Assembly (NCBI GenBank): GCA_964016885.1 | Contig: CAXHJY010001327.1 | Location: forward strand, 1-64,000 | Direction of reading: 5' to 3' | DNA from: Eledone cirrhosa | Lineage: Eukaryota | Length of the DNA: 64,000 bases | In this document: positions 228-64,000 of the stretch, piece by piece | How the letters are laid out: every line of letters starts with the position of its first letter | Numbering within the stretch: the stretch's first letter is position 1 | Made by a program: the position numbers and the translations under genes | Notes under the pieces: generated by a model | Seen by the model: only the letters and a program-made list of their open reading frames with translations | What the model was told of the DNA's origin: nothing | The model's database searches: none

Positions 228-661
228 GCATACTACTGTACGTCTGTATACATATATGTATGTACGTATACATACATACTTACATTTAAGTAAGTGCCGT
301 ACTAAGAGTGAGAAATGAAATTTCGTTTTTATTTTATTACAACTCATCGTTTTCGGTGCGCCTGACCGATTTAACTCACTCGATATGCAAATTAGGCTGC
401 TCAGCCATTAATTTTCATAAGGAAAGTATATACTTTCGAACTATCTGGCAGATGGGTATACGGTGCTGATGATAGCTAACAAGCTTGAAACTAGTACATC
501 GTTCCTGTGTCAGTGTTGAACAAAAAGGTGACGTGGTTGCCTTAACACCGTGCGGCATAAATTCAGGCTGTTCAGTTTGTTTACAAACGAACAAAGCGGG
601 CGCTATAATAAGCGTCCGCTAAACTGATGCGTACATATATGTATGTGTACCTGTATGTATA

Positions 662-699
<38 letters not shown>

Positions 700-815
700 T
701 GCTACTGTACGTCTGTATACATATATGTATGTACGTATACATACATACTTACATTTAAGTAAGTGCCGTACTAAGAGTGAGAAATGAAATTTCGTTTTCA
801 TTTTATTACAACTCA

Positions 816-817
<2 letters not shown>
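228..817 (+). mobile_element. Non-coding hammerhead-bearing mini-element (retrozyme / non-autonomous PLE-like), ~1.25 tandem units of ~470 bp
   Basis: Segment 228-346 is repeated at 697-817 after an internal (TA)n; a hammerhead lies at 461-501; a near-identical copy is at 3472-4236. Confidence 0.7.
461..501 (+). ncRNA. Minimal type I hammerhead ribozyme
   Basis: cggtg CTGATGA tagctaacaagctt GAAA ctaGTA catcg: stem I cggtg/catcg, stem II agct/agct, palindromic stem III actagt, GUA triplet. Confidence 0.8.
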
Positions 818-868
<51 letters not shown>

Positions 869-912
869 ATACAATATTAATAAATGGAAACTATATTTAT
901 AAAACCATATTT

Positions 913-975
913 ATTTCATTATACATATTTCAGGGATACCACATTAAATTATGGTATAACTTCATCAGACAAAAT
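913..975 (-). ncRNA. Type I hammerhead ribozyme in a PLE-like terminal fragment (~870-1100)
   Basis: Minus strand: attttgt CTGATGA ag..atacca(loop)tggtat..ct GAAA tatgt ATA atgaaat; 7-bp stem I including G-U pairs. Confidence 0.65.
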
Positions 976-1128
976 ACAATATATAACAGTTTTACAAATA
1001 GGTTTGAGGTACCCTTTTAAAATACAACCATTACTTTTGGAGGCTGTCTGGATAGAGATTTGTTTATATAAGTCATAGTGTTAAGCACAATTAGAAAAAG
1101 ACATGTATATATATATATATACATACAT

Positions 1129-1470
1129 GGAGGCACATGGCTTAGTGGTTAGAGCATTGGCCTTGCAATCGAAAGGTTGTGAGTTCAATCCTCAGACCGG
1201 GTGATGTGTTGTTTCCTTGAGCAAGACACTTTATTTCACATTGCTCCAGTTTACTCAGATGTAGAAATGAGATGATAGGGACTGGGGTCCCTATCATTCC
1301 ACTGCAAAGTGGTCGTGGAGGTGCCACGGCAAGAAAGCACCCAGCACTCACTGTAAATGAGGTTGGTGTTAGGAAGGGCATCCAGCTGTAGAAATCAAGC
1401 CAGAATCAGTTCCCGTCCCACCCTTGCAAGCAGGGAAAAGTGGACATAAAATGATGATGATGATGATGAT
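1129..1470 (+). mobile_element. tRNA-derived SINE with CORE-like centre and RTE-derived 3' tail
   Basis: A box TGGCTTAGTGG, B box GAGTTCAATCC, central tccttgagcaagacacttt; the 3' part matches the RTE 3'UTR (~13007-13160); ends in (GAT)n. Confidence 0.85.
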
Positions 1471-2061
1471 GTATATATATATATACATGTATATATATAT
1501 ATACATATATACACATGGATATATATATATATATACATATATACACATGTATATATATATATATATACATATATACATGTATATACATATCCTAAACGGA
1601 CAGTAGTCCGTTTAGTAATATTTTTGTGGTCGTGTTTTCGTTGGCAATCGTCTGTTTACTACAGTACAGCGCGGCTCTACTTTATTTAACTGAGATAAAA
1701 CTTATATGAGCATGAACAGTAGAACATTACGCATCTTTTGGCTTAAAAATCTAGAAATTTGGTCGAGCGGGAAAAAGTTTGTAATCAAAGTTTGCTGATA
1801 AATCTTGTGTTCAAGTGAGTGAGTAGTAAGCGTGACGCTAGGGGAGGTAATCCAGAAATGACAAATTTTTTTTGGCGGAACTCGTGATTGTGATTACGTT
1901 AGTCAAATGTAGTCAAATCGCCGAATCCCCTCCTCCTAATTGACTACGTCATTTCTAACGGCCCTACTTGCGTCAGTGTGAAACATTACTTCACTTTTCA
2001 CTGCTAAAATGCTTTTTAAATACTTCGTTAAAAATTTATGTTTATTATCAAAGCTATTTTC

Positions 2062-2159
2062 ATATATACACATATATATACATATACATATACATACATA
2101 TATATACATATATATATATATACATATATATATATACATATATATACATATATATATAC

Positions 2160-2190
<31 letters not shown>

Positions 2191-2191
2191 C

Positions 2192-2276
<85 letters not shown>

Positions 2277-2277
2277 C

Positions 2278-2364
<87 letters not shown>

Positions 2365-2375
2365 CATATATATAC

Positions 2376-2474
<99 letters not shown>

Positions 2475-2489
2475 CATATATATATATAC

Positions 2490-2576
<87 letters not shown>

Positions 2577-2737
2577 CATATATATATACATATATATATA
2601 TACATATATATATACATATATACATATATATATACATATATATATACATATATATATATATATACATATATATATACATATATATATATATATACATATA
2701 TATATACATATATATATATATATACATATATATATAC

Positions 2738-2782
<45 letters not shown>

Positions 2783-2797
2783 CATATATATATATAC

Positions 2798-2896
<99 letters not shown>

Positions 2897-2914
2897 TATA
2901 TACATATACATATA
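2062..2914. repeat. (TA)n microsatellite interrupted by CA
   Basis: Direct reading; similar tracts at 4237-5158, 6750-7280 and 13263-13925. Confidence 0.97.
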
Positions 2915-3263
2915 TCATCATCATCATCATCATCATCATTTTTACGTCCGCTTTTCCCTGCTTGCAAGGGTGGGACGGGAACTGATTCTGGCTTGATTTC
3001 TACAGCTGGATGCCCTTCCTAACACCAACCTCATTTACAGTGAGTGCTGGGTGCTTTTTTTGCCGTGGCACCTCCACGACCACTTTACAGTGGAATGATA
3101 GGGACCCCAGTCCCTATCATCTCATTTCTACAGCTGAGTAAACTGGAGCAACGTGAAATAAAGTGTCTTGCTCAAGGAAACAACACATCACCCGGTCTGA
3201 GAATTGAACTCACAACCTTTCGATTGCAAGGCTAATGCTCTAACCACTAAGCTATGTGCCGCC
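2915..3263 (-). mobile_element. tRNA-derived SINE, same family as 1129-1470, opposite orientation
   Basis: Reverse complement of 1129-1470 with few substitutions; (CAT)n tail at the left end. Confidence 0.85.
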
Positions 3264-3378
3264 ATTATATACATATATATATATATACATATACATACAT
3301 ATATATATACATATATATATATACACATATATATATACATATATATATACACATATATATATACACATATATATATAC

Positions 3379-3468
<90 letters not shown>

Positions 3469-3471
3469 GTA

Positions 3472-3521
3472 TAAACTGATGCGTGCATATATGTATGTGT
3501 ACCTGTATGCATATGTGTATA

Positions 3522-3607
<86 letters not shown>

Positions 3608-4060
3608 TGCTACTGTACGTCTGTATACATATATGTATGTACGTATACATACATACTTACATTTAAGTAAGTGCCATCCTAAGAGTGAGAAATGAAATTT
3701 TGTTTTCATTTTTTTTCAACTTATCGTTTTCGGTATGCCTGCCCGATTTAACTCACTCAATATGCAAATTAGGCTGCTCAGCCATTAATTTTCATAAGGA
3801 AAGTATATACTTTCGAACGTTCAACTATCTGGCAGATGGGTAAACGGTGCTGATGATAGCTAACAAGCTTGAAACTAGTACATCGTTCCTGTGTCAGTGT
3901 TGAACAAAAAGGTGACGTGGTTGCCTTAACACCGTATGGCATAAATTCAGGCTGTTCGCTTTGTTGACAAACAAACGAACAAAGTGGCCGGCGTTATAAT
4001 AAACGCCGGCTAAACTGATGCGTGCATATATGTATGTGTACCTGTATGCATATGTGTATA

Positions 4061-4123
<63 letters not shown>

Positions 4124-4236
4124 GCTACTGTACGTCTGTATACATATATGTATGTACGTATACATACATACTTACATTTAAGTAAGTGCCATCCTAAGAG
4201 TGAGAAATGAAATTTTGTTTTCATTTTTTTTCAACT
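3472..4236 (+). mobile_element. Second copy of the hammerhead-bearing tandem mini-element (~1.4 units)
   Basis: Matches 228-817; identical hammerhead at 3845-3885; ends at the same ..caact position. Confidence 0.7.
3845..3885 (+). ncRNA. Minimal type I hammerhead ribozyme
   Basis: Identical to 461-501. Confidence 0.8.
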
Positions 4237-5098: not shown

Positions 5099-5148
<50 letters not shown>

Positions 5149-5156
5149 ACATATAT

Positions 5157-6750
5157 ATAACTTTGAATAACTTTGAAATGTTTTGGCCAGTATTGGCCCA
5201 GGCCATGTCTAACTTAATAGCACCACCTGGCGAAGTCTTTCAATTCAGGATTTGGGCACCATGGCCCATTCGAGAAGAGAATTACTGTTTGCGGAGACAT
5301 ATCCGGGTGTGGGTGGTTTGTCCGGGATTACTTGGAGGAATTTGTCCAAAGACTTCTTGAATTTTGAGTGGTCAGTTTCTGTTTTGACGTGTCCTGGTGT
5401 GATGTTGAAGAGAGCAGGGCCGATTGAGGTGAAATAATTGTGCCGTATTGTTGTTATGAGTTGCGATTTAGATTTTTGAATGGGACGGATAGCACGGGGC
5501 CCAAGCCTTGGGTGTATCTTGAAGGCGATGCCAACATCATTTGGGCAGTGATGATGGAACATTTTCCACATCATGCAGATAATATAACGCTCACGGCGAC
5601 GTTGGAGTGAGTAAAGTTTCAGGTTTTCCAATCGACCCCAGTAGTCAAGGTCTGACATGCCATCTATCTTTTTCGTGATTGCCCTTTGAGGAGCTTCAAG
5701 TTTCATGATACTTTGTTTCGTGTGGGGAGACCACAGTGGACAACAGTATTCAAGGTGTGGTCGGGCGAAAGTAGAGAAGAGAAGGATAATGGTGCGGGAA
5801 TCTCTCGACTGGAAGGTTCTGAGGATCCAGGAACACATTCTGCGGGCCATGTCAACTTTGCTGCTTATATGCGTGGTCCAGCTTATGTTGCTGTCCACGG
5901 TTACTCCCAAGTCTCTGATGTTGTTAGATGCCACGAGAGTTTCCCCGGAGGGAAGGGAGTACGGGAGTTTCAGAGCATCCTCTTTTCCAAAGTGGATCAG
6001 TTCGAATTTGTCCTCGTTCAGTAACATGTTGTTCTTTTCTGCCCATTGGGTAACAGCCAGTAGGTCTGACTGAAGGCTTATCCGGTCATCCACGCCATTG
6101 ATGACCTTTTGGAGCTTGGAATCATCAGCGAAAATTTTAATGTTGCTGTGTTTGATGATGTCAGTGATGTCATTAATATAGATGATGAAGAGAAGTGGGC
6201 CCAACACAGTGCCTTGTGGGACTCCACTACTGACTTTGGCTGGGCTTGATTTGACTCCCTCAACTACAACATGTTGGGTTCTGTTTGACAGGAAGCTCTT
6301 GATCCACTGCAGCAGCTTTCCAGTGACACCAATATTGGACAGCTTTCTCAGTAGAATGTTATGATCAACCCTGTCAAAGGCCTTGCTGAAATCAAGGTAG
6401 ATAACATCAGTGTTGGAACCCTCTCCCAAGGCTCTCAAAATGTCATCAAAGTGATGCAGTAGTTGCGTCAGGCAATCCCTTCCATTACGGAATCCATGCT
6501 GGTTGGAGTTCAGCATATTGTTACTCTCAAGGAAGTGGGTCATTCGCGATCTCACCACTCGCTCAAATACCTTAATGATATGAGAGGTGAGTGAGATTGG
6601 ACGGTAATTCACGGCATGGGATTTGTTTCCCTTTTTGAAAACTTGGACAACAGACTGGGATAGAAGGTTTTCTGGCACATATCCAGCATCCAGTGAGTTC
6701 CGCCACAGATTGGCAAGAGGAGAAGCAAGTTGGTGTTGACACGCCTTCCA
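5157..6750 (-). mobile_element. 5'-truncated CR1/L2-group LINE (RT domain plus 3' end)
   Basis: Frame ending at 5245 has [35 protein letters not shown] and FADD; short ttcaaagtta tail repeat; (TA)n on both sides. Confidence 0.92.
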
Positions 6751-9606: not shown

Positions 9607-12600
9607 CGCACAATTTCCCTCCCCCCCACCCCCACACACCACCATAGTCTATTCGACCAATCAAACCTAGCATGCCATTTCCACTGCTGCTGCTGCTACT
9701 ACCTGCCTAACTAACTCTCTCCTCCTCTGGCGCATCCCAACACACCCTGCCATTACCCCACCACCACTGTCCTTCTAGCCCTCAATTTTCCCACCGTTAG
9801 GGATGGATGAGCTGGGAATACACGAGCAACTCTGAATCAATAGATGAAATATGAATCTGCGAGCTACCAAGCACCCACGTGAAGCGCCAACCCAGAGACC
9901 CTCCCCTACGAGTGTCGACAAATGCCCAAAACTCCGAGTTGGTACCATCAATGTAGGCTCAATGAAAGGAAGAGCAGGAGAAATCGTAGAAATGCTAGAG
10001 CGAAAGGAAGTTGATGTATGCTGTGTGCAAGAGACTAGATGGAGAGGAGGGTCTGCTAGAGTCCTTGTAGGAAAAAGCCAGTGCTACAAATTTTTCTGGG
10101 TGGGAAATGACGATGGGATGGGTGGTGTAGGTATACTATTAGCTGACAAGTGGGTAGATAAAGTAATCTCAGTGTACAGGGTAAATGCAAGAATCATTAA
10201 ACTCAGACTAGTCCTGAATAAGACAATTACCACAATAATATCAGCTTACGCACCCCAATCGGGGCTGCCAGACGAACTTAAGGATAGGTTTTACGAGTCC
10301 CTAATACACACTACTGCTCTAACAGACGACAAGGACTTCCTAATCATTGCAGGAGATTTTAACGGACACGTAGGTAAACACTGCGACGGCTTCAATAGAG
10401 TACATGGAGGCCATGGAGTTGGCACAAGGAATGAGGAAGGATTCAGACTTCTAGAATTCTGCGACGCCAATGACATGTCGATATGTAACACAAACTTTAA
10501 AAAACCCGACAACCACCTGATCACCTATAGATCAGGGGAGCACTCTAGTCAGTTAGATTTTATCCTCATCAGAGGACGTGACAGATGGACGGTCGTAAAC
10601 ACAAAAGCCTTCCCTAGTGAGGAATGTACATCCCAACATAGCTTAGTTGTCAGCGACCTCACGGTCAGAACTAGACGAGCCCTGAAACAGAGGCCAACCT
10701 GGAGAAGAAAGATCTGGAAGCTGAAAGTCCCCTCAACCAGTAACAGATTTAAAGATATTTTACTCAACGCCTACGACAGTAAAGAAGAACAGATAGAGAC
10801 ATTTAACGTAGAAGAGAACTGGGAGTTCCTAAAAAATAACTTACTAGAGGCGACGGATGAGGTTTGTGGCTGGAGTAAGACCTCAAGCAGGAGGAGAGTG
10901 ACTTGGTGGTGGAACAATAAGGTAGATGAAGCAGTCAAGGCCAAGAGACAGGCATGGAAAGAATGGAAGAACGGGGGGAGCAGGGTACATTACATAGAGA
11001 CCAAGAGGGAAGCTAGGCGACAAGTATACTTAGCTAGGAGGGAAGCAGAGGATAGAAAATTCAAGCATGTTTTACAACGTGAGGACCAGAAACAGGAGGT
11101 ATTCAAGATTGCGAGGCAGTGTGTCAGAGATAGTTGTGATGTCATTGGAGAGAAGTGTATCCGGAATGATAAAGGTGAGCTTGCCCTCACAAGTGCTGAG
11201 AAGAAAGATGCATGGAAGAGTCATTATGATAGATTACTAAATGAGGAGAATGCATGGGAAGAAGAGACCCTACCCCACGTAGACCCTATAGAGGGACCAG
11301 CAGTACAAGTCAGCGGCAGCGTAGTAAGTAAGGCAATCAGAGATATGAAGATAGGGAAGGCAACCGGTCCATCGGGTATAGCTGCCGAGATGCTGAAGGC
11401 ATCTGGGTCTGTAGGTCACACTATAACCACACGTATCGTTAACCAGGTAATACTAGAGGGGGCCATACCAAAAGATTGGTGCAGTAGCATCATTGTCAAC
11501 TGCTACAAAGGTAAAGGCGATGCACTAGATAGAGGAAACTATAGAGGTATAAAGTTGATGGACCAGGTCATGAAAGTAACAGAAAGAGTTATAGCACAGC
11601 TGATTAGGGACCGGGTGAATATAGACGAGATGCAATTTGGGTTTGTTCCAGGGAAAGGCACCACTGATGCGCTCTTCCTTGTGAGGCAATTACAGGAAAA
11701 GTACCTAGCTAAAAGTAAGCCACTCTACTTGGCATTTGTCGACCTTGAGAAAGCCTTTGACAGAGTTCCACGTGCAGTAATCTGGTGGGCTCTTAGAAAA
11801 CTAGGAGTAGATGAATGGCTTGTGAAAGCGGTACAAGCCATGTATAGGGGAGCAGTCAGCAAAGTTAGGATTGGCAATGAGTATAGCGAGGAATTTAGCG
11901 TACAGGTTGGGGTCCACCAGGGCTCTGTTCTTAGCCCTCTCCTGTTCATCATAGTCCTGCAGGCAATAACGGAGGAGTTTAAGACCGGATGCCCATGGGA
12001 ACTCCTGTATGCTGATGACCTCGCACTCATAGCTGAATCTATGGTAGAACTAGAGAATAAATTCCAAACCTGGAAGCAGGGACTAGAGAGAAAGGGCCTC
12101 AAAGTCAACATGACAAAGACTAAGGTCCTTATAAGTAGACGAGAAAACAGAACCCAGATCCCCTCAGGGAAATGGCCTTGCTCAGTATGTAGGAAAGGTG
12201 TAGGTAGGAACTCCATTCTTTGCCCCAAATGCAAACAATGGGTACACAAGAGATGTAGCGGGATCTCAGGAAGCTTAATTAAGAATGTAGGATTCACATG
12301 CAGCAGCTGTGCTGAAACAGCAAGCAAACAGCCACAGGAAACAAGTACCACCAATCTCTGGGAGGGCCCTGTAGAAACAGTAGACAGCTTCTGCTACCTA
12401 GGTGACCGAATTAGCAACGGAGGTGGGTGCTCAGAAAGTACAATAACTAGGGTAAGAACGGGATGGAAGAAGTTTAGGGAACTACTACCACTGCTAGCTG
12501 CAAAAGGCTTCTCCCTCAGAATGAAAGGCAGACTGTATGATGCGTGTATCCGAACAGCGATGTTGCATGGTAGTGAGACCTGGGCGCTGAAGGTGGAAGA

Positions 12601-13263
12601 CCTACGTAGATTAGAGAGAAACGAAGCCTGCATGCTCCGATGGATGTGTAACAGTAATATACGTGAACGACAAAGCATAAATGAATTGAGAGAGAGACTG
12701 AGCATAAGAGGAATCAAATGCTGCGTGCAGGAGAGGCGGTTACGCTGGTATGGGCATGTGATGCGTATGAAGGATGACAGCTGCATAAAAAGGTGCAGAG
12801 CACTAGAAGTTGATGGAAACCGCGGAGTGGGGAGACCCAAGATGACTTGGGATGAGGTGATAAAAGCCGACCTTACCCAACTACACCTCGCAAAGTCAAT
12901 GACACACGACCGTGACTTCTGGCGTCACGCAGTAATACAGGGTACCCGACCTCCCATGGGTACATGCTGAAGCATATAAACAATATGCCCCCCCCCCCCC
13001 CACCGCAAGGTGGTCGTGGAGGTGCCACGGCAAAAAAGCACCCAGCCCACACTGTAAAGTGGACGTGTAGGCGCCACGAAAAAGCACCCAGCACTCACTG
13101 TAAATGAGGTTGGTGTTAGGAAGGGCATCCAGCTGTAGAAATCAAGCCAGATCAGTTCCTGTATGAGCAAGGCATGGTCAGCCGACCAGACACTGCCCAC
13201 AACAGGACAACCCGTCTAACCCATGCTAGCGTGGAAGAACGGACGTAAAAACGGTGATGATGA
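9607..13263 (+). mobile_element. Full-length RTE LINE, family A (may extend 5' to 7281)
   Basis: Intact ORF; 3'UTR 12971-13263 ends in (GAT)n followed by (TA)n. Confidence 0.9.
9851..12970 (+). CDS. RTE-clade LINE protein: APE endonuclease, reverse transcriptase and PHD-type zinc finger
   Basis: Intact 1039 aa; GTINV, CVQETRW, AGDFNGHVG and SQH (APE); [21 protein letters not shown] and YADD (RT); CSVC..CPKC..HKRC..CSSC; RLRWYGHV C-terminus. Confidence 0.95.
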   Translation: MNLRATKHPREAPTQRPSPTSVDKCPKLRVGTINVGSMKGRAGEIVEMLERKEVDVCCVQETRWRGGSARVLVGKSQCYKFFWVGNDDGMGGVGILLADKWVDKVISVYRVNARIIKLRLVLNKTITTIISAYAPQSGLPDELKDRFYESLIHTTALTDDKDFLIIAGDFNGHVGKHCDGFNRVHGGHGVGTRNEEGFRLLEFCDANDMSICNTNFKKPDNHLITYRSGEHSSQLDFILIRGRDRWTVVNTKAFPSEECTSQHSLVVSDLTVRTRRALKQRPTWRRKIWKLKVPSTSNRFKDILLNAYDSKEEQIETFNVEENWEFLKNNLLEATDEVCGWSKTSSRRRVTWWWNNKVDEAVKAKRQAWKEWKNGGSRVHYIETKREARRQVYLARREAEDRKFKHVLQREDQKQEVFKIARQCVRDSCDVIGEKCIRNDKGELALTSAEKKDAWKSHYDRLLNEENAWEEETLPHVDPIEGPAVQVSGSVVSKAIRDMKIGKATGPSGIAAEMLKASGSVGHTITTRIVNQVILEGAIPKDWCSSIIVNCYKGKGDALDRGNYRGIKLMDQVMKVTERVIAQLIRDRVNIDEMQFGFVPGKGTTDALFLVRQLQEKYLAKSKPLYLAFVDLEKAFDRVPRAVIWWALRKLGVDEWLVKAVQAMYRGAVSKVRIGNEYSEEFSVQVGVHQGSVLSPLLFIIVLQAITEEFKTGCPWELLYADDLALIAESMVELENKFQTWKQGLERKGLKVNMTKTKVLISRRENRTQIPSGKWPCSVCRKGVGRNSILCPKCKQWVHKRCSGISGSLIKNVGFTCSSCAETASKQPQETSTTNLWEGPVETVDSFCYLGDRISNGGGCSESTITRVRTGWKKFRELLPLLAAKGFSLRMKGRLYDACIRTAMLHGSETWALKVEDLRRLERNEACMLRWMCNSNIRERQSINELRERLSIRGIKCCVQERRLRWYGHVMRMKDDSCIKRCRALEVDGNRGVGRPKMTWDEVIKADLTQLHLAKSMTHDRDFWRHAVIQGTRPPMGTC

Positions 13264-17322: not shown

Positions 17323-17383
17323 TTCAGTCCAGAATTAGCCGTCGAAACGGCTTGAGCTCAGCTGTCGGGGTCTTACTGGTTCC

Positions 17384-17414
<31 letters not shown>

Positions 17415-17476
17415 ATATATATATATATTAATAGAGTAAAACAAAGAAGCCTTCAATACATCAAAAGTCTTTATTA

Positions 17477-17514
17477 GCCGACAATGTTTCGTCCTATTAA
17501 GGACTCATCAGGGC
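17477..17514 (-). ncRNA. Hammerhead ribozyme in the inverted 5' pLTR
   Basis: Reverse complement of 22142-22179. Confidence 0.8.
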
Positions 17515-17702
17515 AATTAAAACAACAAGAAGTAATATCGGCAGATACATTGAGCTATACCTTTTACTGTCATTTCTATAATACGAAGAGGGTGTTTAAC
17601 TCCAACACACTCCAGTATTTTAACCCTTGTCACTGCTCCCGATCGGTCGAGCTTCCTCATATATACTGGTATTTTGGCCTTTATATATATATATCTGACA
17701 GT

Positions 17703-20390
17703 ATGCTAACAAAGTGTTACCTGCCTTTATCTCTGAAGAATATTCCTACCCCCTCTAAGAATACTTACAAAAAACTATTGATAGCTAGTGTTAACTCCTT
17801 TGTAAAAAGGATTAGATGGTGTGCTTTCCACTATGATAATAATAAGAATAGGAAGGACCCCAGGAATAGAACTATTTTTAATAACTATGGCTTCAAAACT
17901 TATAAGAGCACACCACACAATATTCTGTTAGATAGTTTTGAAAGTGACTTACTCTCTCTTGTCAAAAATATTAGGTATAGGCCAAATAATAGACATAGAA
18001 ATTATAATAATTTTGATAAGTTCCAGTCTAGACTTAAAAATATTGTTAAGGGTTTCGGTGAGAATAAGTCCATTCTTGTCCCGGCGGATAAGACTAAAAA
18101 TCTATACTCCATGGATTATAGTGCTTACCGCGACTTTATTTATAAGGAGCTGCATAGAAACTATAAAAAAACTACACTTGAGAATTTGAACCACATCAAT
18201 AGTGATGGCCTTAGAATTGTCACTGACCTCGGCCTCGATAAGTATACCCAGCCATATTACCCTCGAGAACCGAGATTCACTCTTAAGGATCATAAGGTTG
18301 ATTTTATTAGTAATCCCTCTGTTAGACTCATCTGTCCTTCTAAGTCTGATATAGCCATTATCAGTAAAAAAATCCTTGACCTTATTATACCAGATGTTAG
18401 GGATAAGGTTAATTTTAACCTATGGGGGAACACTAAGGAAGTTATAGATTGGTTCTCCGGGATTAATAGACTTGAATCTAATAAGTTTATCCAATTCGAT
18501 ATTGATGCCTACTACACATCAATTTCACCCATCCTCCTCAATAAAGCTTTAATGTTGGCCATGAGAGTGTCCAGCCTTACACGATCACAGGTAGATATTA
18601 TACTAGCAGCCCGTAAAACTATTATTAAATTTGAGGACACATTTTGGACCCGTAAAAACACGCCCAACAATTTCGACGTTACAATGGGTTTGAGTGATTC
18701 GGCCCAGGTTACTGATCTTGTTGGGTTGTTCCTCCTTAATGAAATATATGCTACCTTCCCGCACCTTATAGGCGGACTATATCGTGATGATGCATTGTTT
18801 GTAATTAACTCTAGCACCAACAATGTAGAACATAATAAGAAGAAGCTTTATAAGTTTTTTAAAAGCTATAACCTTTCGATCACGATAGATAGAAATGATA
18901 GAGCGGTTAACTTTTTAGATGTGACTTTGGACTTGGTCACTAATAGTTTTAAACCCTTCCATAAGCCTAATGAAATACTTTCTTATGTTAGTCCCAATTC
19001 TAACCACCCCAAGTCTATGATAAGCTCTATAATTAAGGGTGTATCTAATAGGATTTCCACACTCTCTAAGGACGTAGGAACATTTAATGAACATGCGGAG
19101 TACTATAATAATGCCCTAGCAAATTCAGGTTACTCTAGTAAAATACACTATAATAATAGTAACCTTAGAAAGTCTCCGTCTACCTTTAGTAATAATAACA
19201 TAATATCACATAACATGGCCATGAATGTGAGTAGCAAACATAGTAACCGTAAAAATTATATAGGTGTATCTGAACCCACCCATAAGTTAACCCACCGAAC
19301 CCGTAATAGTGAATATAATACCTCTAGGAAACAAGTTGAACCCTCTGAGCGCTCACACATTGGTGATAATTTAGCTGGATCTTATTCTGATAATGTTGCT
19401 CCTACTGATCCTATCATTGGCCCTGATCCTTATGATGGGATTCCGGACAGCAGCAGATCTACTGGAGGTAGAAACTGTAATAGACTTAATGAAATTTTGG
19501 CTTATTCTATGAATGTGGCTTTAACTAATCCTTGTAGTAACCCTAGTCTCGATGGTGGGATACTCGATAATGGTAGAGTCGGTAAGAATAAAAATAGAAG
19601 GCGATTAAACACTTATTTTAACCCGCCATATAATCAGGAAGTATCAACTAATATCCCTAGGTCTTTCTTCTCTATCTTAGAGAAAAATTTCCCCCCTTCT
19701 CATAAATACCATAGTATTTTTAATAAAAATGTTATTAAACTTTCATTCTCTACCACCCCTAATATTAGTTCTCATTTAGCTAGCACTAACAATAGGAAAA
19801 TTAGGGATGGATTCTCCTCTCTACATACTACTAGTCTGAACAGATCTGGCAATGCATTACCACCAGAACAGTCCTTATCTAATAGCAATCCTACGTGTAA
19901 TGCATCACCACTTGAGTCAACCAATAACACCCGGAAGTGCAATTGTAGAGTGAGTGCTAACTGCCCTTTAAACGGTAACTGCCTTTCTAAGAACATTGTC
20001 TATGCTTGCGAAGTTATAACTAATTCCTCTAATAGAACTTATATAGGCTCTACATCTAACACTTTTAAGACTAGGTTTAACTCTCATATCTCTAATTTCA
20101 AGCATGTTAAGTTTAAGAATTCTACTTCTTTAGCACATTATGTCTGGGATCTTAAGATAGCTAATATACCATATAGCCTTAACTGGCGTTTAGTAGCACG
20201 CTCTAACCACCTTTCTACACATACTAAGTTTTGTAATCTCTGTATCCTCGAGACACACTCTATAATCTTCTCTAGCGCATCTTTACTTAATAGAAAGTCT
20301 GAGATATTCTCTTCTTGCCCCCATGCTATTTCTAATTCATACTTTTATTATAAACCTAAACGTTCTAGTAGTACAAATTGTACCCATTAG
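17703..20390 (+). CDS. Penelope-like (Naiad-type) reverse transcriptase plus GIY-YIG endonuclease
   Basis: SLKNIP N-terminus, ADKT, FIQFDI, GLYRDDAL, NFLDVTLDL, YFNPPY, CNC..CPL..C, IVY..YIGST..R, CNLC; the track start at 17484 lies in the inverted pLTR, so ATG 17703 is preferred. Confidence 0.9.
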   Translation: MLTKCYLPLSLKNIPTPSKNTYKKLLIASVNSFVKRIRWCAFHYDNNKNRKDPRNRTIFNNYGFKTYKSTPHNILLDSFESDLLSLVKNIRYRPNNRHRNYNNFDKFQSRLKNIVKGFGENKSILVPADKTKNLYSMDYSAYRDFIYKELHRNYKKTTLENLNHINSDGLRIVTDLGLDKYTQPYYPREPRFTLKDHKVDFISNPSVRLICPSKSDIAIISKKILDLIIPDVRDKVNFNLWGNTKEVIDWFSGINRLESNKFIQFDIDAYYTSISPILLNKALMLAMRVSSLTRSQVDIILAARKTIIKFEDTFWTRKNTPNNFDVTMGLSDSAQVTDLVGLFLLNEIYATFPHLIGGLYRDDALFVINSSTNNVEHNKKKLYKFFKSYNLSITIDRNDRAVNFLDVTLDLVTNSFKPFHKPNEILSYVSPNSNHPKSMISSIIKGVSNRISTLSKDVGTFNEHAEYYNNALANSGYSSKIHYNNSNLRKSPSTFSNNNIISHNMAMNVSSKHSNRKNYIGVSEPTHKLTHRTRNSEYNTSRKQVEPSERSHIGDNLAGSYSDNVAPTDPIIGPDPYDGIPDSSRSTGGRNCNRLNEILAYSMNVALTNPCSNPSLDGGILDNGRVGKNKNRRRLNTYFNPPYNQEVSTNIPRSFFSILEKNFPPSHKYHSIFNKNVIKLSFSTTPNISSHLASTNNRKIRDGFSSLHTTSLNRSGNALPPEQSLSNSNPTCNASPLESTNNTRKCNCRVSANCPLNGNCLSKNIVYACEVITNSSNRTYIGSTSNTFKTRFNSHISNFKHVKFKNSTSLAHYVWDLKIANIPYSLNWRLVARSNHLSTHTKFCNLCILETHSIIFSSASLLNRKSEIFSSCPHAISNSYFYYKPKRSSSTNCTH

Positions 20391-22141
20391 CTGATATATT
20401 CCATTATTTATTTTTTAGTTTAGGTCCTTTTGTTTGCCAACATTATTGTTATCATCATTATTATAATTGGTTTTTGAGGACTCTTCATTCTAGATCTCAA
20501 TCTTTTGGCTACTGTACCACATCTATCTTCTTACGCATTAAATTTTCACTGTTACACCTTATGAATGTATATAAGATTATATATTTTACGCTATTTATTT
20601 TATTTTATTCTTATTTTTATCTTTATTCGGATTCTTCTTTGGAACCCCCCCCCCCCCCCATGCGCATAAACTATTGTCAACCCCTCCAAATTGACACTGA
20701 TTAGATTATATTTAAACCCCCCCTCTTTTACACTCCTTTCTATTATGTAATATAGTATATCGACTGTATTTTATGCCCCTTTGCATCCTCCATACATTTC
20801 TTCATTTCTGTCCCTATTAGCCTACCTTAATTCTGCTTAAGTCAGTTCTTTGGATATCGTTATGTATATGATAATAAAAAAATTTCATTCCTTTTTGTAA
20901 ACATTTGGAACGAAATATTAACGTTTATAAACTTTAATTACTTAAACTATAGCCAATATTATACTGCCTTATTGGATAGTTTAAATATTTTTAATATTAA
21001 TTTATCAAATAGGGTTTTCGAGTCATTTACAGGGGTTGTTTCCTTAGCTTTTACTTAACTACTTAACTGCATGTGAGACCTAAATGTATACGTTTGTTTT
21101 TGTTTTTTAATTTCCGGTTGATTCTATTTATTTATTCTATTCTATATTTTATATTTTATTTGTAATACTACTGTGCATTATATTTACTGTCTGGCACTTA
21201 CTCACTCATCCATATACATGTCTGTCTACCAACCTTGTAATTATAAGTAATTATATATTATATTGTATTAATTTATTTTATATAATATATTATATTATAT
21301 TGTATTTTTTATTGTAATATTGATCCTTATTACTTACCGTTAATTATATGTAACATTATGATATGTTAAACTTTATATATCTTGTAAGATGTTTGTACTT
21401 CTGTACCATCATAATTTTTTTGAGGTATTGTACAATTTATTTTTCCTCACCTACTCTGTAACCCAATATGAATCGATTTGTTAACTTGAGTACATTTATA
21501 TTGTTTATGATAAATGTTAGTACATTGTATATTGTAAATGTTATTATTATTATATTATTATTGTGACATCTATATTGTTTGTGTAAATTAACCGGAGATT
21601 ATCTATTCTATTATATTGTATTATATAGTATATAATTGTATTATTTATTATTATATGTGTTACTTATAATTATATCATATTATTACCTCATGTATATTGG
21701 GTAGATGTATTAGTATTATTATTATTATTATTTTCATTCCTATCATGCTTATTTTTATATTCAAATTCTTAATAAGGTTTAATTTGTGCAGTTGAAGATG
21801 GATGTGTGTATTGTTGTATGTGTGTACGTGTGCGCACATATATACATATGCATATTGTATCTTTTGATTTTTATTGTAATTTTAATGTTGGTAAAGGTAT
21901 ATTATAGTATATTATATTGTATTATATAAAATTCCTGCTCTATATAACCACCTTTGTTTAGCTCTAGTTTTTGCTTTGGACTATATTTGTAATATGGTTC
22001 TTAATGTTATATACATCCTTAGTAATTATTATCATATATTTATATTATATATTTTTTTGTAATACTTCAGTGTATGTACACTCCATATTCTTCGGAGCTT
22101 CCGGCTTGTATCTGCCGATATTACTTCTTGTTGTTTTAATT

Positions 22142-22179
22142 GCCCTGATGAGTCCTTAATAGGACGAAACATTGTCGGC
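22142..22179 (+). ncRNA. Minimal type I hammerhead ribozyme in the 3' pLTR
   Basis: gcc CTGATGA gtcct taat aggac GAAA catt GTC ggc. Confidence 0.88.
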
Positions 22180-22326
22180 TAATAAAGACTTTTGATGTAT
22201 TGAAGGCTTCTTTGTTTTACTCTCTTAATTTTTCGGCTCTGTTTAACTACATTGAGCTATACCTTTTACTGTCATTTCTTTAATACGAAGAGGGTGTTTA
22301 ACTCCAACACACTCCAGTATTTTAAC

Positions 22327-22390
<64 letters not shown>

Positions 22391-22909: not shown

Positions 22910-24572
22910 TGGCGCCCCTGATGTCTTGGCGGCAATAAAGGAAATCAAGCATAATTCAGCAGTAGGTCCCGATAGGTTCCCTGCTTGTGTCTTGAAGGCG
23001 TGTCAACACCAACTTGCCAATCTGTGGCGGAACTCACTGGATGCTGGATATGTGCCAGAAAACCTTCTATCCCAGTCTGTTGTCCCAGTTTTCAAAAAGG
23101 GAAACAAATCCCTTGCCGTGAATTACCGTCCAATCTCACTCACCTCTCATATCATTAAGGTATTTGAGCGAGTGGTGAGATCGCGAATGACCCACTTCCT
23201 TGAGAGTAACAATATGCTGAACTCCAACCAGCATGGATTCCGTAATGGAAGGGATTGCCTGACGCAACTACTGCATCACTTTGATGACATTTTGAGAGCC
23301 TTGGGAGAGGGTTCCAACACTGATGTTATCTACCTTGATTTCAGCAAGGCCTTTGACAGGGTTGATCATAACATTCTACTGAGAAAGCTGTCCAATATTG
23401 GTGTCACTGGAAAGCTGCTGCAGTGGATCAAGAGCTTCCTGTCAAACAGAACCCAACATGTTGTAGTTGAGGGAGTCAAATCAAGCCCAGCCAAAGTCAG
23501 TAGTGGAGTCCCACAAGGCACTGTGTTGGGCCCACTTCTCTTCATCATCTATATTAATGACATCACTGACATCATCAAACACAGCAACATTAAAATTTTC
23601 GCTGATGATTCCAAGCTCCAAAAGGTCATCAATGGCGTGGATGACCGGATAAGCCTTCAGTCAGACCTACTGGCTGTTACCCAATGGGCAGAAAAGAACA
23701 ACATGTTACTGAACGAAGACAAATTCGAACTGATCCACTTTGGAAAAGAGGATGCTCTGAAACTCCCGTACTCCCTTCCCTCCGGGGAAACTCTCGTGGC
23801 ATCTAACAACATCAGAGACTTGGGAGTAACCGTGGACAGCAACATAAGCTGGACCACGCATATAAGCAGCAAAGTTGACATGGCCCGCAGAATGTGTTCC
23901 TGGATCCTCAGAACCTTCCAGTCGAGAGATTCCCGCACCATTATCCTTCTCTTCTCTACTTTCGCCCGACCACACCTTGAATACTGTTGTCCACTGTGGT
24001 CTCCCCACACGAAACAAAGTATCATGAAACTTGAAGCTCCTCAAAGGGCAATCACGAAAAAGATAGATGGCATGTCAGACCTTGACTACTGGGGTCGATT
24101 GGAAAACCTGAAACTTTACTCACTCCAACGTCGCCGTGAGCGTTATATTATCTGCATGATGTGGAAAATGTTCCATCATCACTGCCCAAATGATGTTGGC
24201 ATCGCCTTCAAGATACACCCAAGGCTTGGGCCCCGTGCTATCCGTCCCATTCAAAAATCTAAATCGCAACTCATAACAACAATACGGCACAATTATTTCA
24301 CCTCAATCGGCCCTGCTCTCTTCAACATCACACCAGGACACGTCAAAACAGAAACTGACCACACAAAATTCAAGAAGTCTTTGGACAAATTCCTCCAAGT
24401 AATCCCGGACAAACCACCCACACCCGGATATGTCTCCGCAAACAGTAATTCTCTTCTCGAATGGGCCATCGTGCCCAAATCCTGAATTGAAAGACTTCGC
24501 CAGGTGGTGCTATTAAGTTAGACATGGCCTGGGCCAATACTGGCCAAAACATTTCAAAGTTATTCAAAGTTA
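22910..24572 (+). mobile_element. 5'-truncated CR1/L2-group LINE, near-identical to 5157-6750
   Basis: Same RT peptide, stop at 24485, same tail; 12-bp deletion (QLASPLANL to QLANL). Confidence 0.92.
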
Positions 24573-24582
24573 TATATATATA

Positions 24583-26217
24583 TCATCATCATCATCATCA
24601 TCACCGTTTTACGTCCGTTCTTCCACGCTAGCATGGGTTAGACGGGTTGTCCTGTTGTGGGCAGTGTCTGGTCGGCTGACCATGCCTTGCTCATACAGGA
24701 ACTGATCTGGCTTGATTTCTACAGCTGGATGCCCTTCCTAACACCAACCTCATTTACAGTGAGTGCTGGGTGCTTTTTCGTGGCGCCTACACGTACACTT
24801 TACAGTGTGGGCTGGGTGCTTTTTTGCCGTGGCACCTCCACGACCACCTTGCGGTGGGGGGGGGGGCATATTGTTTATATGCTTCAGCATGTACCCATGG
24901 GAGGTCGGGTACCCTGTATTACTGCGTGACGCCAGAAGTCACGGTCGTGTGTCATTGACTTTGAGAGGTGTAGTTGGGTAAGGTCGGCTTTTATCACCTC
25001 AACCCAAGTCATCTTGGGTCTCCCCACTCCGCGGTTTCCATCAACTTCTAGTGCTCTGCACCTTTTTATGCAGCTGTCATCCTTCATACGCATCACATGT
25101 CCATACCAGCGTAACCGCCTCTCCTGCACGCAGCATTTGATTCCTCTTATGCTCAGTCTCTCTCTCAATTCATTTATGCTTTGTCGTTCACGTATATTAC
25201 TGTTACACATCCATCGGAGCATGCAGGCTTCGTTTCTCTCTAATCTACGTAAGTCTTCCACCTTCAGCGCCCAGGTCTCACTACCATGCAACATCGCTGT
25301 TCGGATACACGCATCATACAGTCTGCCTTTCATTCTGAGGGAGAAGCCTTTTGCAGCTAGCAGTGGTAGTAGTTCCCTAAACTTCTTCCATCCCGTTCTT
25401 ACCCTAGTTATTGTACTTTCTGAGCACCCACCTCCGTTGCTAATTCGGTCACCTAGGTAGCAGAAGCTGTCTACTGTTTCTACAGGGCCCTCCCAGAGAT
25501 TGGTGGTACTTGTTTCCTGTGGCTGTTTGCTTGCTGTTTCAGCACAGCTGCTGCATGTGAATCCTACATTCTTAATTAAGCTTCCTGAGATCCCGCTACA
25601 TCTCTTGTGTACCCATTGTTTGCATTTGGGGCAAAGAATGGAGTTCCTACCTACACCTTTCCTACATACTGAGCAAGGCCATTTCCCTGAGGGGATCTGG
25701 GTTCTGTTTTCTCGTCTACTTATAAGGACCTTAGTCTTTGTCATGTTGACTTTGAGGCCCTTTCTCTCTAGTCCCTGCTTCCAGGTTTGGAATTTATTCT
25801 CTAGTTCTACCATAGATTCAGCTATGAGTGCGAGGTCATCAGCATACAGGAGTTCCCATGGGCATCCGGTCTTAATTCCTCCGTTATTGCCTGCAGGACT
25901 ATGATGAACAGGAGAGGGCTAAGAACAGAGCCCTGGTGGACCCCAACCTGTACACTAAATTCCTCGCTATACTCATTGCCAATCCTAACTTTGCTGACTG
26001 CTCCCCTATACATGGCTTGTACCGCTTTCACAAGCCATTCATCTACTCCTAGTTTTCTAAGAGCCCACCAGATTACTGCACGTGGAACTCTGTCAAAGGC
26101 TTTCTCAAGGTCGACAAATGCCAAGTAGAGTGGCTTACTTTTAGCTAGGTACTTTTCCTGTAATTGCCTCACAAGGAAGAGGGCATCAGTGGTGCCTTTC
26201 CCTGGTACAAACCCATA
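24583..26217 (-). mobile_element. 5'-truncated RTE family A copy with one frameshift
   Basis: Near-identical to ~11637-13263; ORF split at ~25875. Confidence 0.93.
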
Positions 26218-29820: not shown

Positions 29821-31147
29821 TAAACAATGAATAATAACAGGTAGACATCATAAAAAGGTAATTTATTCCGTGTGCTTACAAGTGTTTCCACGGTGGTACT
29901 GCAGCCTAGTTATGCTACGTGCAAATTCACAAGTACTTGCAGAACTCAAATATCCAATGTTGTGACCATTGTTTCCTCAGAGCAGAATGGTAAACTGTAT
30001 AATGTAAATACCCTTAAGTGGGGTTGTTGGGGAAGATAGAGTAGAAAAGGAAGAGAGAAAAGTAGGGAAGAGGGAGAGAGAAAGAAAGATATGCAGGGGT
30101 TGGAGAAGTAGGAGAGAGTGGCTTGTAGATATCTTAATCAAAATGTTATGGTAGGGGTTTTATTATACTGGTTACTTTTGGAGAGATGCGTTGATAGTTA
30201 AGGTCGGAATTATTTATTGCCCCAGAGGGCAGGTTCATAGATGTTGAGAGGGAGGTAGGCCAAAGGCGAGAGAGAGTGTAATGGATGTAGAGAGAGATAG
30301 GTAGAGAGGGGACAGACAAAGTTTGTGTGGTGAGTGAACTTTGGGTTTGTAGTAATCTAGGAATTGCACTGAGTTACCATGTATAGTGATAAGCAGTGTA
30401 TTGTCTTGTAGTGTGGGGGGAAGAGAAGGTTGTTAGCTAGAAAGTGGTGTTATAGTTACGGGTTCGAATGTTAAGTTATTTTATAGTGAGAGAATTTAGC
30501 TTTTAGTTTGTGGTTGCAGTATAATGATCGTTCAATTCTATCGTTAAGTAGTTTGTTTTTGGATTTTAATATGTAAAAGAGCTCAAGGTTACATAACCTG
30601 CAGTACTTCAATCCACTCCGATATGCACTTGCGCTGGAAAGTATATCCCATTTTAAGGTGAACTGTTGGTTGTGTTCACGGAGTTGCCAGGTCTTGTTGG
30701 CGAGCGTGGTCAGAAAACGGTGATTTGGATGTTTGATTGAGAATCGATGATGGTACCAGCGAGATTTAAACGATGTGGTGGTAGATCCGATATAATACCA
30801 TTTCTGGTCGTTCGATTCAACCGTGCATTGGTAAACAATGTTGGACTTTAGGCATTCATTCTTCAATGGACATTTTTCAGGTAGATGGCAGTTACATTCT
30901 TTGTTGTGGGTAGCGGGTACACCATGGATAGGTTGTGATAGCGGTACAGGTGGGTTGTGTAATACCCGTCTCCCATTTATTGGTTGGGAGGCAGATATTG
31001 CGTTCTGCCCATCTGTTACTAAAATGTTTTGTTTTGTAGAGTTGTTTAGTTGCCTTAAGTTAAGTTTTTTTATGTATGCTTCAAGGTTTGGTGCCGTGGA
31101 GTATGATAGTCTAATAGTTTTAGAGTTCAGAATTTTGCTGTATTTAC
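29821..31147 (-). mobile_element. 5'-truncated Naiad-type PLE (GIY-YIG end plus 3'UTR)
   Basis: Frame ending at 30471: CNC..CPL..CLKSNIVYQC..YIGST..R..CRLC; hammerhead-like motif at 29873-29984 (tgct CTGAGGA..GAAAC actt GTA agca). Confidence 0.85.
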
Positions 31148-31160
31148 ATATATATATATA

Positions 31161-31727
31161 TATCATCATCATCATCATCATCAGGTTTAGCGTCCGTGTT
31201 CCACGCTTGCATGGGTTTGGACGGGTGTTTTCCCACTTGAGGCAAGAGTGGTTGTCTTGCTCGCATAGGACTGTCTGGCGGGTTTTCTACAGTTGGATGC
31301 CCTTCCTAACACCAACCACATTTACAGTGTGGGGCTGGGAGGTTTTTACCGTGTTGCCTACACGGCCACATTACAGCGTGGACTGTCTGGCGGGTTTTCT
31401 ACAGCTGGATGCCCTTCCTAACACCAACCACATTTACAGTGTGGGTCTGGGAGGTTTTTACCGTGTTGCCTACACGGCCACATTTACAGCGTGGACTGTG
31501 TGTTTTTTGTCGTGACACCTACACGATCTCATTTGTTTCGGCCTGGATGTTGTGGGACCAACATAACTTTACATTGGAAGGGGCGGTGTGGATGGGGTGG
31601 AGGTGGTGGGACGGGGGGGGGGGGGGGGGGGGTGTTTTGATAGAGATGCCTACTGACTATAGTAGGTTTTTACTTTGTATTTAGGTAAGGCGGGTCTTCT
31701 CTATTACTGAGTACCGCCAAAGGTCTC
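31161..31727 (-). mobile_element. RTE family B 3' end with a ~112-bp internal tandem duplication
   Basis: Matches the reverse complement of ~27153-27598; 31269-31380 is duplicated at 31381-31498. Confidence 0.85.
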
Positions 31728-36020: not shown

Positions 36021-36450
36021 AAGGACGATTTGTTATGTCTTCATTACGTTTATTGAGTAGTGACACGTATTTCGCTATTGATCAGCTCAAGGTTTGATCT
36101 GTATTGATCTAGCCCGACTCTGGAATCAAAAGCTCGCGTCACTACTCAATAAAGGTAATAAAGACATAACAATTCGTCCTTTGATTATTATTATTACACT
36201 GTTTAATTCTACACCTCGTTAGACGGGAAACTAAGCATCGAGTGCTCACTCGGGTGAACCTACAGTAACTGCCCGTTACACTCCCTAGATATATATATAT
36301 ATATATAAAGGTTAAACAAGGTTCAATGAATAAATCAAAGAATAAAGTTTTACAATAGATTAGAAGCACTCCACAGTCGGAAATGGTTTTCCGGAGTTAT
36401 TAATATTAATTCAAAATATTAATAAAAATAGACATTCGTGTGATCAAGTA

Positions 36451-36517
36451 TATTTTATTATACATATTTCAGAGGTACTGAGCTATTATCAACAGTACGT
36501 CCTCATCAGATAAAATA
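36451..36517 (-). ncRNA. Type I hammerhead ribozyme, related to 913-975
   Basis: tattttat CTGATGA ggac gtactg..cagtac ctct GAAA tatgt ATA ataaaata; perfect 8-bp stem I. Confidence 0.72.
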
Positions 36518-36809
36518 AGATGATGCATGACATACCCTGACTAAGTAGATGGTTAAAATTCAGTCATGGCAGTGCTAATAAGCTTGAAACTAGTACATCG
36601 TTTCTTTGTCAGTGTTGAATAAAAGGGCAACAATGGTTGCTAAACACTGTACGGCTTTATTCGGGATCTTTGTTTACAAACAAACTGAGCATTATAATAA
36701 ATGTTCGGTAAATCCATACGTACATTATATATATGTGTGCATGTATGTATATATATATATATACATACTACTGTACGTCTGTATACATACTTATATATAT
36801 ATATAGATA

Positions 36810-50827: not shown

Positions 50828-50944
50828 CTGAAAGGCAGTGTTTTAAGAACAGTTTATATTAACATACATAGGTATTTTAATTATTATTATCAATGTTAAT
50901 AATTGCACGGAGGATGGTGAATTGATGAATAGGCAGAGTATTGA

Positions 50945-62900: not shown

Positions 62901-64000
62901 ATAATACTGTGGAACTTTGGTTAACCTAACTTAATAAAATACTATTATAATGCTGTGGAACTTTCGTTAACCTATCTTAATAAAATACCAATATAATACT
63001 GCGGAACATTGGTTAACCTAACTTAATAAAATATTATTATAATACTGTGGAACTTTGGTTAACCTAACTTAATAAAATACTAATATAATACTGCGGAACA
63101 ATGGTTAACCTAACTTAATAAAATACGAATATAATACTGCGGAACTTTGGTTAACCTAACTTAATAAAATATTAATATAATACTGCGGAACATTGGTTAA
63201 CCTAACTTAATAAAATACCAATATAACACTGCGGAACTTTGGTTAACCTAACTTAATAAAATACTAATATAATACTGCGGAACATTGGTTGATGTAACTT
63301 AATAAAATACTATTTATAATACTGTGGGACCTTGTTTAACCTAACTTAATAAAATACTATTATAATACTGTGTAACTTTGGTTAACCTAACTTAATAAAA
63401 TACCAATATAATACTGTGCAACCTTGGTTAACCTAACTTAATAAAATACTATTATAATACTGTGGAACTTTGGTTAACCTAACTTAATAAAATACTATTA
63501 TAATACTGTGGAACTTTGGTTAACCTAACTTAATAAAATATCAATATAATACTGTGGAATGTTGGTTAACCTAACTTAATAAAATACTATTATAATACTG
63601 TGGAACTTTGGTTAACCGAACTTAATAAAATACTATTATAATACTGTGGAACTTTTGTTAACCTAACTTAATAAAATACTATTATAATACTGTGGAACAT
63701 TGGTTAACCTAACTTAATAAAATACTATTATAATACTGTGGAAGTTTGGTTAACCAAACTTCATAAAATACCATTATAATACTGTGAAACCACAGTATTA
63801 TAATGGTATTTTATTAAGTTAGGTTAATGAAAGTTCCACAGTATTATAATTGTTTCCACTTTTGGCACAAGGCCATCAATTACCCAGTACATTACTGATA
63901 AAATAAAGTACAAGTAATGTACTGAGTATTTGATGGCCTTGTGCCAAAAGTGGAAACAATTATAATACTGTGGAACTTTGGTTAACCTAACTTAATAAAA
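50945..64000. repeat. 46-bp satellite array (>13 kb, runs off the window) with higher-order structure
   Basis: ataatactgtggaactttggttaacctaacttaataaaatactatt; period 46 (50961 to 51007). Confidence 0.98.
51978..52162 (-). mobile_element. tRNA-headed Deu/Nin-domain SINE inserted in the satellite with a 17-bp target-site duplication
   Basis: Head gggcggtggattggcagtatcggtagag, B-box-like gagtttaaatccc, ctttgcctttcatcct..gtcgataaaataaagtacc; taaaatactattataat at 51961-51977 and 52163-52179. Confidence 0.8.

Follow-up and report, generated by a model that had tools for sequence, protein, structure and literature searches.

The 64,000-nucleotide stretch of Eledone cirrhosa DNA analysed here (contig CAXHJY010001327.1, referred to below as the window) carries two copies of a short hammerhead-bearing mini-element that is, by every feature checkable in sequence, a variant non-LTR retrozyme. 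Genomic copies of this retrozyme sit within (TA)n tracts as tandem units, frequently with two arms. We consider it fairly probable that they are placed there by a Hydra-type Penelope-like element (PLE), the reverse transcriptase and endonuclease of which would work from a continuous RNA, probably a circle in many insertions.

Copy 1 (positions 228..817, + strand) comprises one arm of ~1.25 units with a period of 469 and has its 5' end within a TA tract (157-227), while copy 2 (3472..4236, + strand) comprises one arm of ~1.5 units with a period of 515/539 and belongs to another subfamily; each terminates at the long 3' end described below. The presence of two non-coding copies with an identical hammerhead at ~228-817 and ~3472-4236, as given in the original prediction, was borne out by BLAST and by identity over 43 nt, and the copies are, as it described, longer than one unit, contain (TA)n inside the unit and begin at different points. 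The copies are ~90% alike across the core (BLAST), with their bodies being mismatched at 24 of 425 paired columns. Thus, despite their identical 43-nt hammerheads, they represent separate insertions of different subfamilies. Each contains a single hammerhead, such that release of a monomer by double cleavage is impossible from either copy. In the mini-element family as a whole, unit length ranges from 458 to 540 nt, as set by the length of the TA tract. In a trimer of the unit, the longest frame beginning with ATG was 112 aa, antisense and made up of low-complexity, TA-derived residues, and the element is accordingly described as non-coding. A sequence at 36570..36790 (+ strand) that had been flagged as a diverged relative is indeed one, sharing 75-80% identity with the mini-element over 36574-36724, and was assigned to a sister family, here termed family B. 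This copy is 5'-truncated, starts within the hammerhead, is without CUGAUGA and ends at the family B short end. Family B, ~20% diverged from the main family, is represented by 2,635 candidates genome-wide.

In the 3.0-Gb assembly, the exact 37-nt hammerhead core occurs 10,333 times (5,272 + 5,061), as compared to 0 occurrences of the control, excluding chance occurrence. The largest array is two-armed and contains 19 hammerheads (15 + 4; L110/L165), with up to 15 exact units lying in one arm. Whole-window Rfam and repeat scans were dominated by TA runs. Contigs from four runs of unrecorded kind speak to the presence of the unit and to that alone; contigs of two further organisms contained pieces of the unit, some of them 95-99% or more identical.

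The type I hammerhead core of copy 1 (460..502, + strand) comprises helix I (ACGGUG/CAUCGU), CUGAUGA, helix II, GAAA and the palindromic ACUAGU of helix III, and that of copy 2 (3844..3886, + strand) is identical over its 43 nt. Cleavage is predicted after position 496. The base of helix II carries a U.U, and helix III amounts to one pair inside the palindrome. Helix I continues for ~10 pairs past an internal loop containing U1.7, reaching ~16 bp in all (444..513, + strand), and shows compensatory changes between the main family and family B, namely U.G to A-U in 24 and G.U to U.G in 6, numbers that count sequences rather than events. Across 174 segments, of which 68 are distinct, every position of the core except N7 is 98-100% conserved; the main-family segments in this sample were partly selected on the core. 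The match to Rfam HH9 is weak (18.6 bits, E 0.038, below the gathering value of 52).

The motif had been called a minimal hammerhead and set beside known minimal type I hammerheads with a palindromic helix III. The type and the palindrome stand, whereas the extended, compensated helix I sets the motif apart from the minimal form found in PLEs. Since PLE minimal hammerheads are described as being without helix III and without tertiary contacts (PMC6155905), the label 'minimal' is inexact here. Among the hammerheads described from axolotl and newt, HHR_Amex1 shares with the mini-element a helix III of 1 bp, here with a palindromic tetraloop, and HHR_Amex2 shares the basal U.U of helix II; both are reported to cleave better as dimers, and multimeric RNAs were observed (PMC7229834). 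Compared by motif features, the mini-element hammerhead thus unites the two weakening features that are split between Amex1 and Amex2. As 8 of 9 predicted Xenopus retrozyme dimers were reported as uncleaved in vitro (10.64898/2026.07.22.740005, preprint), a well-formed predicted hammerhead may still be inactive.

The anatomy of the insertions was described using 50 consecutive loci on contig 1, which together account for the first 100 cores listed there. Of these, 33 are two-armed, with the arms arranged head-to-head, and 17 are single-armed, contributing 18 arms, 12 of them long-ended and 6 short-ended. The short 3' end site (reference positions 55-65, anchor 57; ~282..288 in the window, + strand) is used by one arm of two-armed insertions, and the long 3' end, placed by mapping of these loci at reference positions 102-120 (anchor 116), corresponds to ~343-347 in the window. 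The sequence between the two sites, 285..345 (+ strand), constitutes a tail of ~59 nt. Both outer ends could be mapped in 28 two-armed loci (27, together with L110 once extended), and each of the 28 has exactly one long end; 26 pair a short with a long end, and two pair a long end with an eroded one (reference positions 24 and 43). Neither long/long nor short/short pairs were found among these 28 loci, a count that omits five two-armed loci with one unclear end and, at L087 and L095, neighbouring pieces of family B. The arms meet at scattered positions, mostly with an overlap of 0-6 nt of microhomology. The outer ends sit within (TA)n, where any target-site duplication would be unreadable. Family B retains both 3' end sites.

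The original prediction had the copies sharing an end at ..CAACT and proposed that copies genome-wide would show one fixed 3' end and permuted 5' ends. The common end, which is followed by (TA)n, holds for both window copies and the 5' ends are indeed scattered, but genome-wide there are two 3' ends, ~59 nt apart. A single fixed 3' end was accordingly rejected, with both the long and the short sites having been mapped. An origin of the second arm as a fold-back of the tailed arm was likewise rejected, given that the short-ended arm is at times much the longer (L064, L076, L105). PLE insertions are typified by partial tandem copies, by a 5'-truncated copy in inverted orientation and by a tail that only one of the ends carries (Craig et al. 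2021, PMC8557442), and the two-armed, one-tailed insertions seen in the assembly are a PLE footprint.

Two further two-armed structures were noted. In a chimeric locus (L014/L167; G000:C4:337.457-337.460 Mb), the long arm is of family B and the short arm passes from family B hammerhead sequence into the main family, which points to reverse transcription having switched from one retrozyme RNA to another during a single insertion. In addition, a small, very common two-armed element with no obvious hammerhead (window 17325-17382; L061, L002, L147) has short and long ends ~76 nt apart and inserts into TA tracts, including the internal TA of the mini-element.

The nature of the RNA template was addressed by considering 5' ends, unit junctions and variants. 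Mapped 5' ends are spread evenly, with only 2 of 103 falling at reference positions 273-280, the loci having been chosen because one or both arms retained an intact core. In a genome-wide pattern search for 5' ends that abut TA close to the cleavage site, no pile-up was detected among the matches listed; ~2-5 of the ~32 distinct junctions among the 100 matches listed lay near that site, taken over a 31-nt interval. A linear cleaved monomer as the main template was therefore rejected. Junctions across the cleavage site are exact in 130 of 138 cases, the remainder being mostly point changes, and this, together with the evenness of the 5' ends, makes it likely that reverse transcriptase reads through the ribozyme junction on a continuous RNA. 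Based on 65 full units, divergence is 0.4% between units of one insertion and 3.5% between insertions. In 73 loci (the 50 consecutive loci and 23 non-redundant further loci), 36 private variants are common to all covering units, 16 of these spanning both arms, and 303 are unit-specific. L064 carries private variants in all 7 covering units, in both arms, and L082 in all 5. Private variants found in every covering unit call for a monomer bottleneck, of which a circle would be the simplest form. The earlier proposal of a circular or concatemeric RNA template is supported by these genomic signs, namely arrays reaching 19 hammerheads, the absence of an ORF, 5' ends at permuted positions and read-through of the cleavage site.

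Two loci display a different pattern. In L110/L165 (G000:C1:69.578-69.587 Mb), a series of unit marks (C>T, none, 8-nt deletion) is run through two times in one arm, of which this period of three covers only a part, and a single time in the other, and in L013, a G>C mark is found in one unit of each arm. In both, the short arm apparently lies one unit upstream of the long arm. As the partial marks recur on both arms, a pure monomer circle is insufficient for these loci; a multimeric template or later gene conversion would explain them, although two cases offer only a lead.

Such marks, appearing in the same order on both arms with a one-unit offset, are also what would be expected were PLE mobilisation to rely on a linear multimer, always uncleaved and transcribed from donor arrays, with the hammerhead being nearly inert and arrays being rebuilt by duplication at the DNA level. 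The weakness of helices II and III points in the same direction, and the lack of a pile-up at the cleavage site is equally compatible with such a template. On the other hand, the private variants carried on both arms by the 7 units of L064 and the 5 units of L082 need a monomer bottleneck, copying that truncates 5' ends can, on its own, only shorten arrays, and the catalytic core and extended helix I have been kept across families ~20% apart, albeit in a main-family sample selected on the core. An always linear, uncleaved template is hence regarded as unlikely, if still deserving of some weight, and a continuous RNA that in many insertions is probably circular is the preferred reading.

Candidates for the enzyme that mobilises the mini-element were sought within the window. 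A near-intact PLE at 17428..22330 (+ strand) contains a 970-aa open frame with the motifs RIRWC, DKT, CNCRVSANC, YIG, CNLC and CPH and a C-terminal endonuclease, is two-armed with short and long ends, and bears hammerheads at 22139 (+ strand) and 17517 (- strand). As traits of the Hydra clade include a C-terminal GIY-YIG domain, RWK-like, DKT, CxCx5C, CxxC and CxH motifs, a canonical hammerhead and a (TA)n target (PMC8557442), this element is a Hydra-type PLE by its motifs, hammerhead and (TA)n target. It has 144 scored genomic matches, many being 96-99% identical and containing frames of >900 aa, indicative of a young, abundant family, and the short and long ends of its copies are ~101 nt apart. 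A short (TA)n was also noted directly before the likely start codon. A second Hydra-type PLE family, at 30471-31286 (- strand) with a 3' region extending to ~29820, has a tail of ~140 nt, an oversized hammerhead-like motif and 60,736 first-look candidates. The Pfam GIY-YIG model was matched in this second PLE only, below the cut-off. When the mini-element was compared with the pseudo-LTRs (pLTRs) of the two families (15 and 14 loci, respectively), no homology was found. Since the mini-element shares sequence with neither family, the mobiliser is assigned at the level of the clade only, with a Hydra-type PLE being the candidate type.

Could the mini-element copies instead be the pseudo-LTR ends of an autonomous PLE not seen here? 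The insertion footprint is PLE-like, and Xenopus retrozymes have been reported to match pLTRs (10.64898/2026.07.22.740005, preprint). Yet up to 15 exact units are found within one arm, the sequence past the long end is the next unit and not an ORF (50 + 23 loci), the longest ATG frame of the trimer is the TA-derived 112-aa frame described above, and homology to the two PLE families is absent. Such an origin is considered quite improbable. The same loci bear on the possibility, raised in the original prediction as one that would count against it, that the copies are ends of a longer coding element; at none of the 50 + 23 loci examined does an ORF continue from the element.

Weaker still, to the point of being very improbable, is movement by a Naiad PLE or by LINE twin priming. 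RTE- and CR1-like frames abound in the window, but LINE twin priming yields non-overlapping arms and a variable second priming site, a mismatch with the mini-element, the arms of which overlap in sequence and both start at fixed sites. Copying by a Naiad reverse transcriptase had been the mobiliser first proposed and, like the mini-element, Naiads target (TA)n and form tandem and inverted, tailed insertions (PMC8557442). Naiads are, however, described as having an N-terminal endonuclease and no canonical hammerhead and as being present in cephalopods as inactive remnants (Craig 2021, PMC8557442), unlike the hammerhead-bearing mini-element and the young PLEs of the window, which have a C-terminal endonuclease, Hydra motifs and the same footprint; a Naiad is thus an unlikely mobiliser, and a Hydra-type PLE remains the candidate.

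The (TA)n inside the unit, together with its TA-like arms (631..745 in copy 1, + strand), is inherited with the unit and predicted to form a long hairpin; the predicted fold of the circular monomer, in which this hairpin appears, has a z of -7.5 relative to 30 shuffles. The tract and its pattern of interruptions are inherited by subfamily and insertion, and the tract of family B is shorter. The internal (TA)n probably goes back to a target tract that was captured long ago and has been retained as a hairpin. Foreign elements land here in sister copies. Inserts of ~0.4-1.1 kb each were found in 4 of 134 internal tracts at unbiased loci, and the first locus set held 4 further foreign inserts (L004, L016, L017, L019). 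By inspection, RTE-like LINE ends are among the inserts, as are other repeats that bear a hammerhead or are two-armed; none of the 8 is the mini-element itself. The proposal that the internal (TA)n seeds new target sites accordingly holds for other elements, with self-insertion seen in none of these 8 cases. Counting one boundary type alone, the genome contains ~470,000 (TA)10 run starts per strand. As the ~10,000 element tracts make up about 2% or less of genomic TA targets, the seeding effect is real but minor. The mini-element can be viewed as a retroelement bearing its own target class, with a small effect on the target supply of the genome.

Priming at the internal TA was also considered and rejected, as the arms of L016 and L017 resume and reach the long end after inserts of 7.7 kb and 1.4 kb, respectively. 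Of the five arms that seemed to stop at the internal TA, L016 being one of them, the other four (L022, L072, L079 and L083) showed no resumption within the DNA retrieved.

Signs of A-to-I editing were sought in the same tracts. Interruptions in the internal tracts are TG in 295 cases and CA in 11, as compared to 48 and 46, respectively, in the flank control; counts restricted to the tract interior give 12 versus 4 insertions, which are non-independent. The TG excess is weakened by the interruptions being inherited and by the possibility of their slipping in from the boundary TG. Among substitutions, A>G accounts for 12 of the 36 variants that are shared and for 21 of the 303 that are unit-specific (p = 2.5e-5), and the asymmetry between A>G and T>C is insignificant in both the hairpin (15 vs 11) and the body (24 vs 38). 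On the basis of the latter comparison, the deduction of RNA editing from substitutions was rejected, and the signs taken together are suggestive only of A-to-I editing of mini-element RNA.

The favoured mechanism can be summarised as follows. Mini-element arrays would be transcribed, and the weak hammerhead, with its 1-bp palindromic helix III and the U.U in helix II, would cut slowly, mostly as a dimer, such that slow cleavage and ligation would yield monomers, multimers and circles. The PLE endonuclease would make a cut in each strand of a (TA)n tract; of the two resulting ends, one would prime at the long and the second at the short 3' end site. Each reverse transcriptase would pass through at least one unit junction, and the two cDNAs would join at microhomology. 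The internal (TA)n, once captured and kept as a hairpin, would then act as a passive landing pad. A more elaborate version, which we put forward tentatively and regard as rather doubtful, has a reverse transcriptase dimer from a Hydra-type PLE priming from both (TA)n ends on one continuous RNA (a monomeric or multimeric circle), at sites 59 nt apart and, where visible, one unit out of register, with the captured TA hairpin being A-to-I edited and helping to recruit the enzyme. If dual priming on a circle does take place, then the genome preserves a trace of rolling-circle copying by reverse transcriptase as well as of the geometry with which PLEs integrate.

Other repeats were noted in the window. 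At 36300-36560 (- strand) and 880-980 (- strand) lie hammerhead-like repeats that are distinct from the mini-element; their helix II is very long, and they end in (TA)n. Young CR1-like and RTE-like LINE pieces form near-identical inverted pairs (5147-6717 / 23013-24583 and 11979-13001 / 24853-25875), and a 46-bp satellite with interspersed 110-nt perfect hairpins occupies 50944-63790.

A search of the literature, covering the main texts of openly available papers, found no paper describing a cephalopod retrozyme or a retrozyme with an internal target microsatellite, and neither ribozymes nor retrozymes are mentioned in the main text of a paper on Octopus repeats (PMC13282606). An in vitro PLE system has been named as a missing step (Craig 2021, PMC8557442). 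The mini-element offers a minimal substrate: it is 470 nt long, has two exactly placed priming sites and thousands of young insertions, and shares its genome with young, intact Hydra-type reverse transcriptases. With it, one can test whether copying is rolling-circle, whether priming is two-ended and how the PLE tail arises.

Relative to known systems, the mini-element is like Hydra-clade PLEs, as these are described, in that it targets (TA)n, carries a hammerhead, forms partial tandems and has an inverted 5'-truncated arm as well as a tail on only one of its ends (PMC8557442), and differs from them in having no ORF and in showing no homology to the pLTRs of the two families from the window. 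Its ~59-nt tail compares with 30-40 nt in PLEs generally (PMC8557442) and with ~101 and ~140 nt in the local PLEs. With metazoan non-LTR retrozymes, it shares non-coding tandem units of a few hundred nucleotides, each with a type I hammerhead, and, as in these, no LTR, PBS or PPT sequences were seen and copies number in the thousands (PMC7229834; 10.64898/2026.07.22.740005). PLEs in the same genome have been proposed as mobilisers of animal retrozymes, by a mechanism that those reports leave undemonstrated (PMC7229834; 10.64898/2026.07.22.740005). For the published metazoan retrozymes, expression and circles have been demonstrated (PMC7229834; 10.64898/2026.07.22.740005); for the mini-element, both are predicted. 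What distinguishes it from the retrozymes described in these sources is that it contains an internal (TA)n, that is, its own target sequence, and that it is inserted in two-armed form, with two fixed ends lying away from the cleavage site (PMC7229834; 10.64898/2026.07.22.740005).
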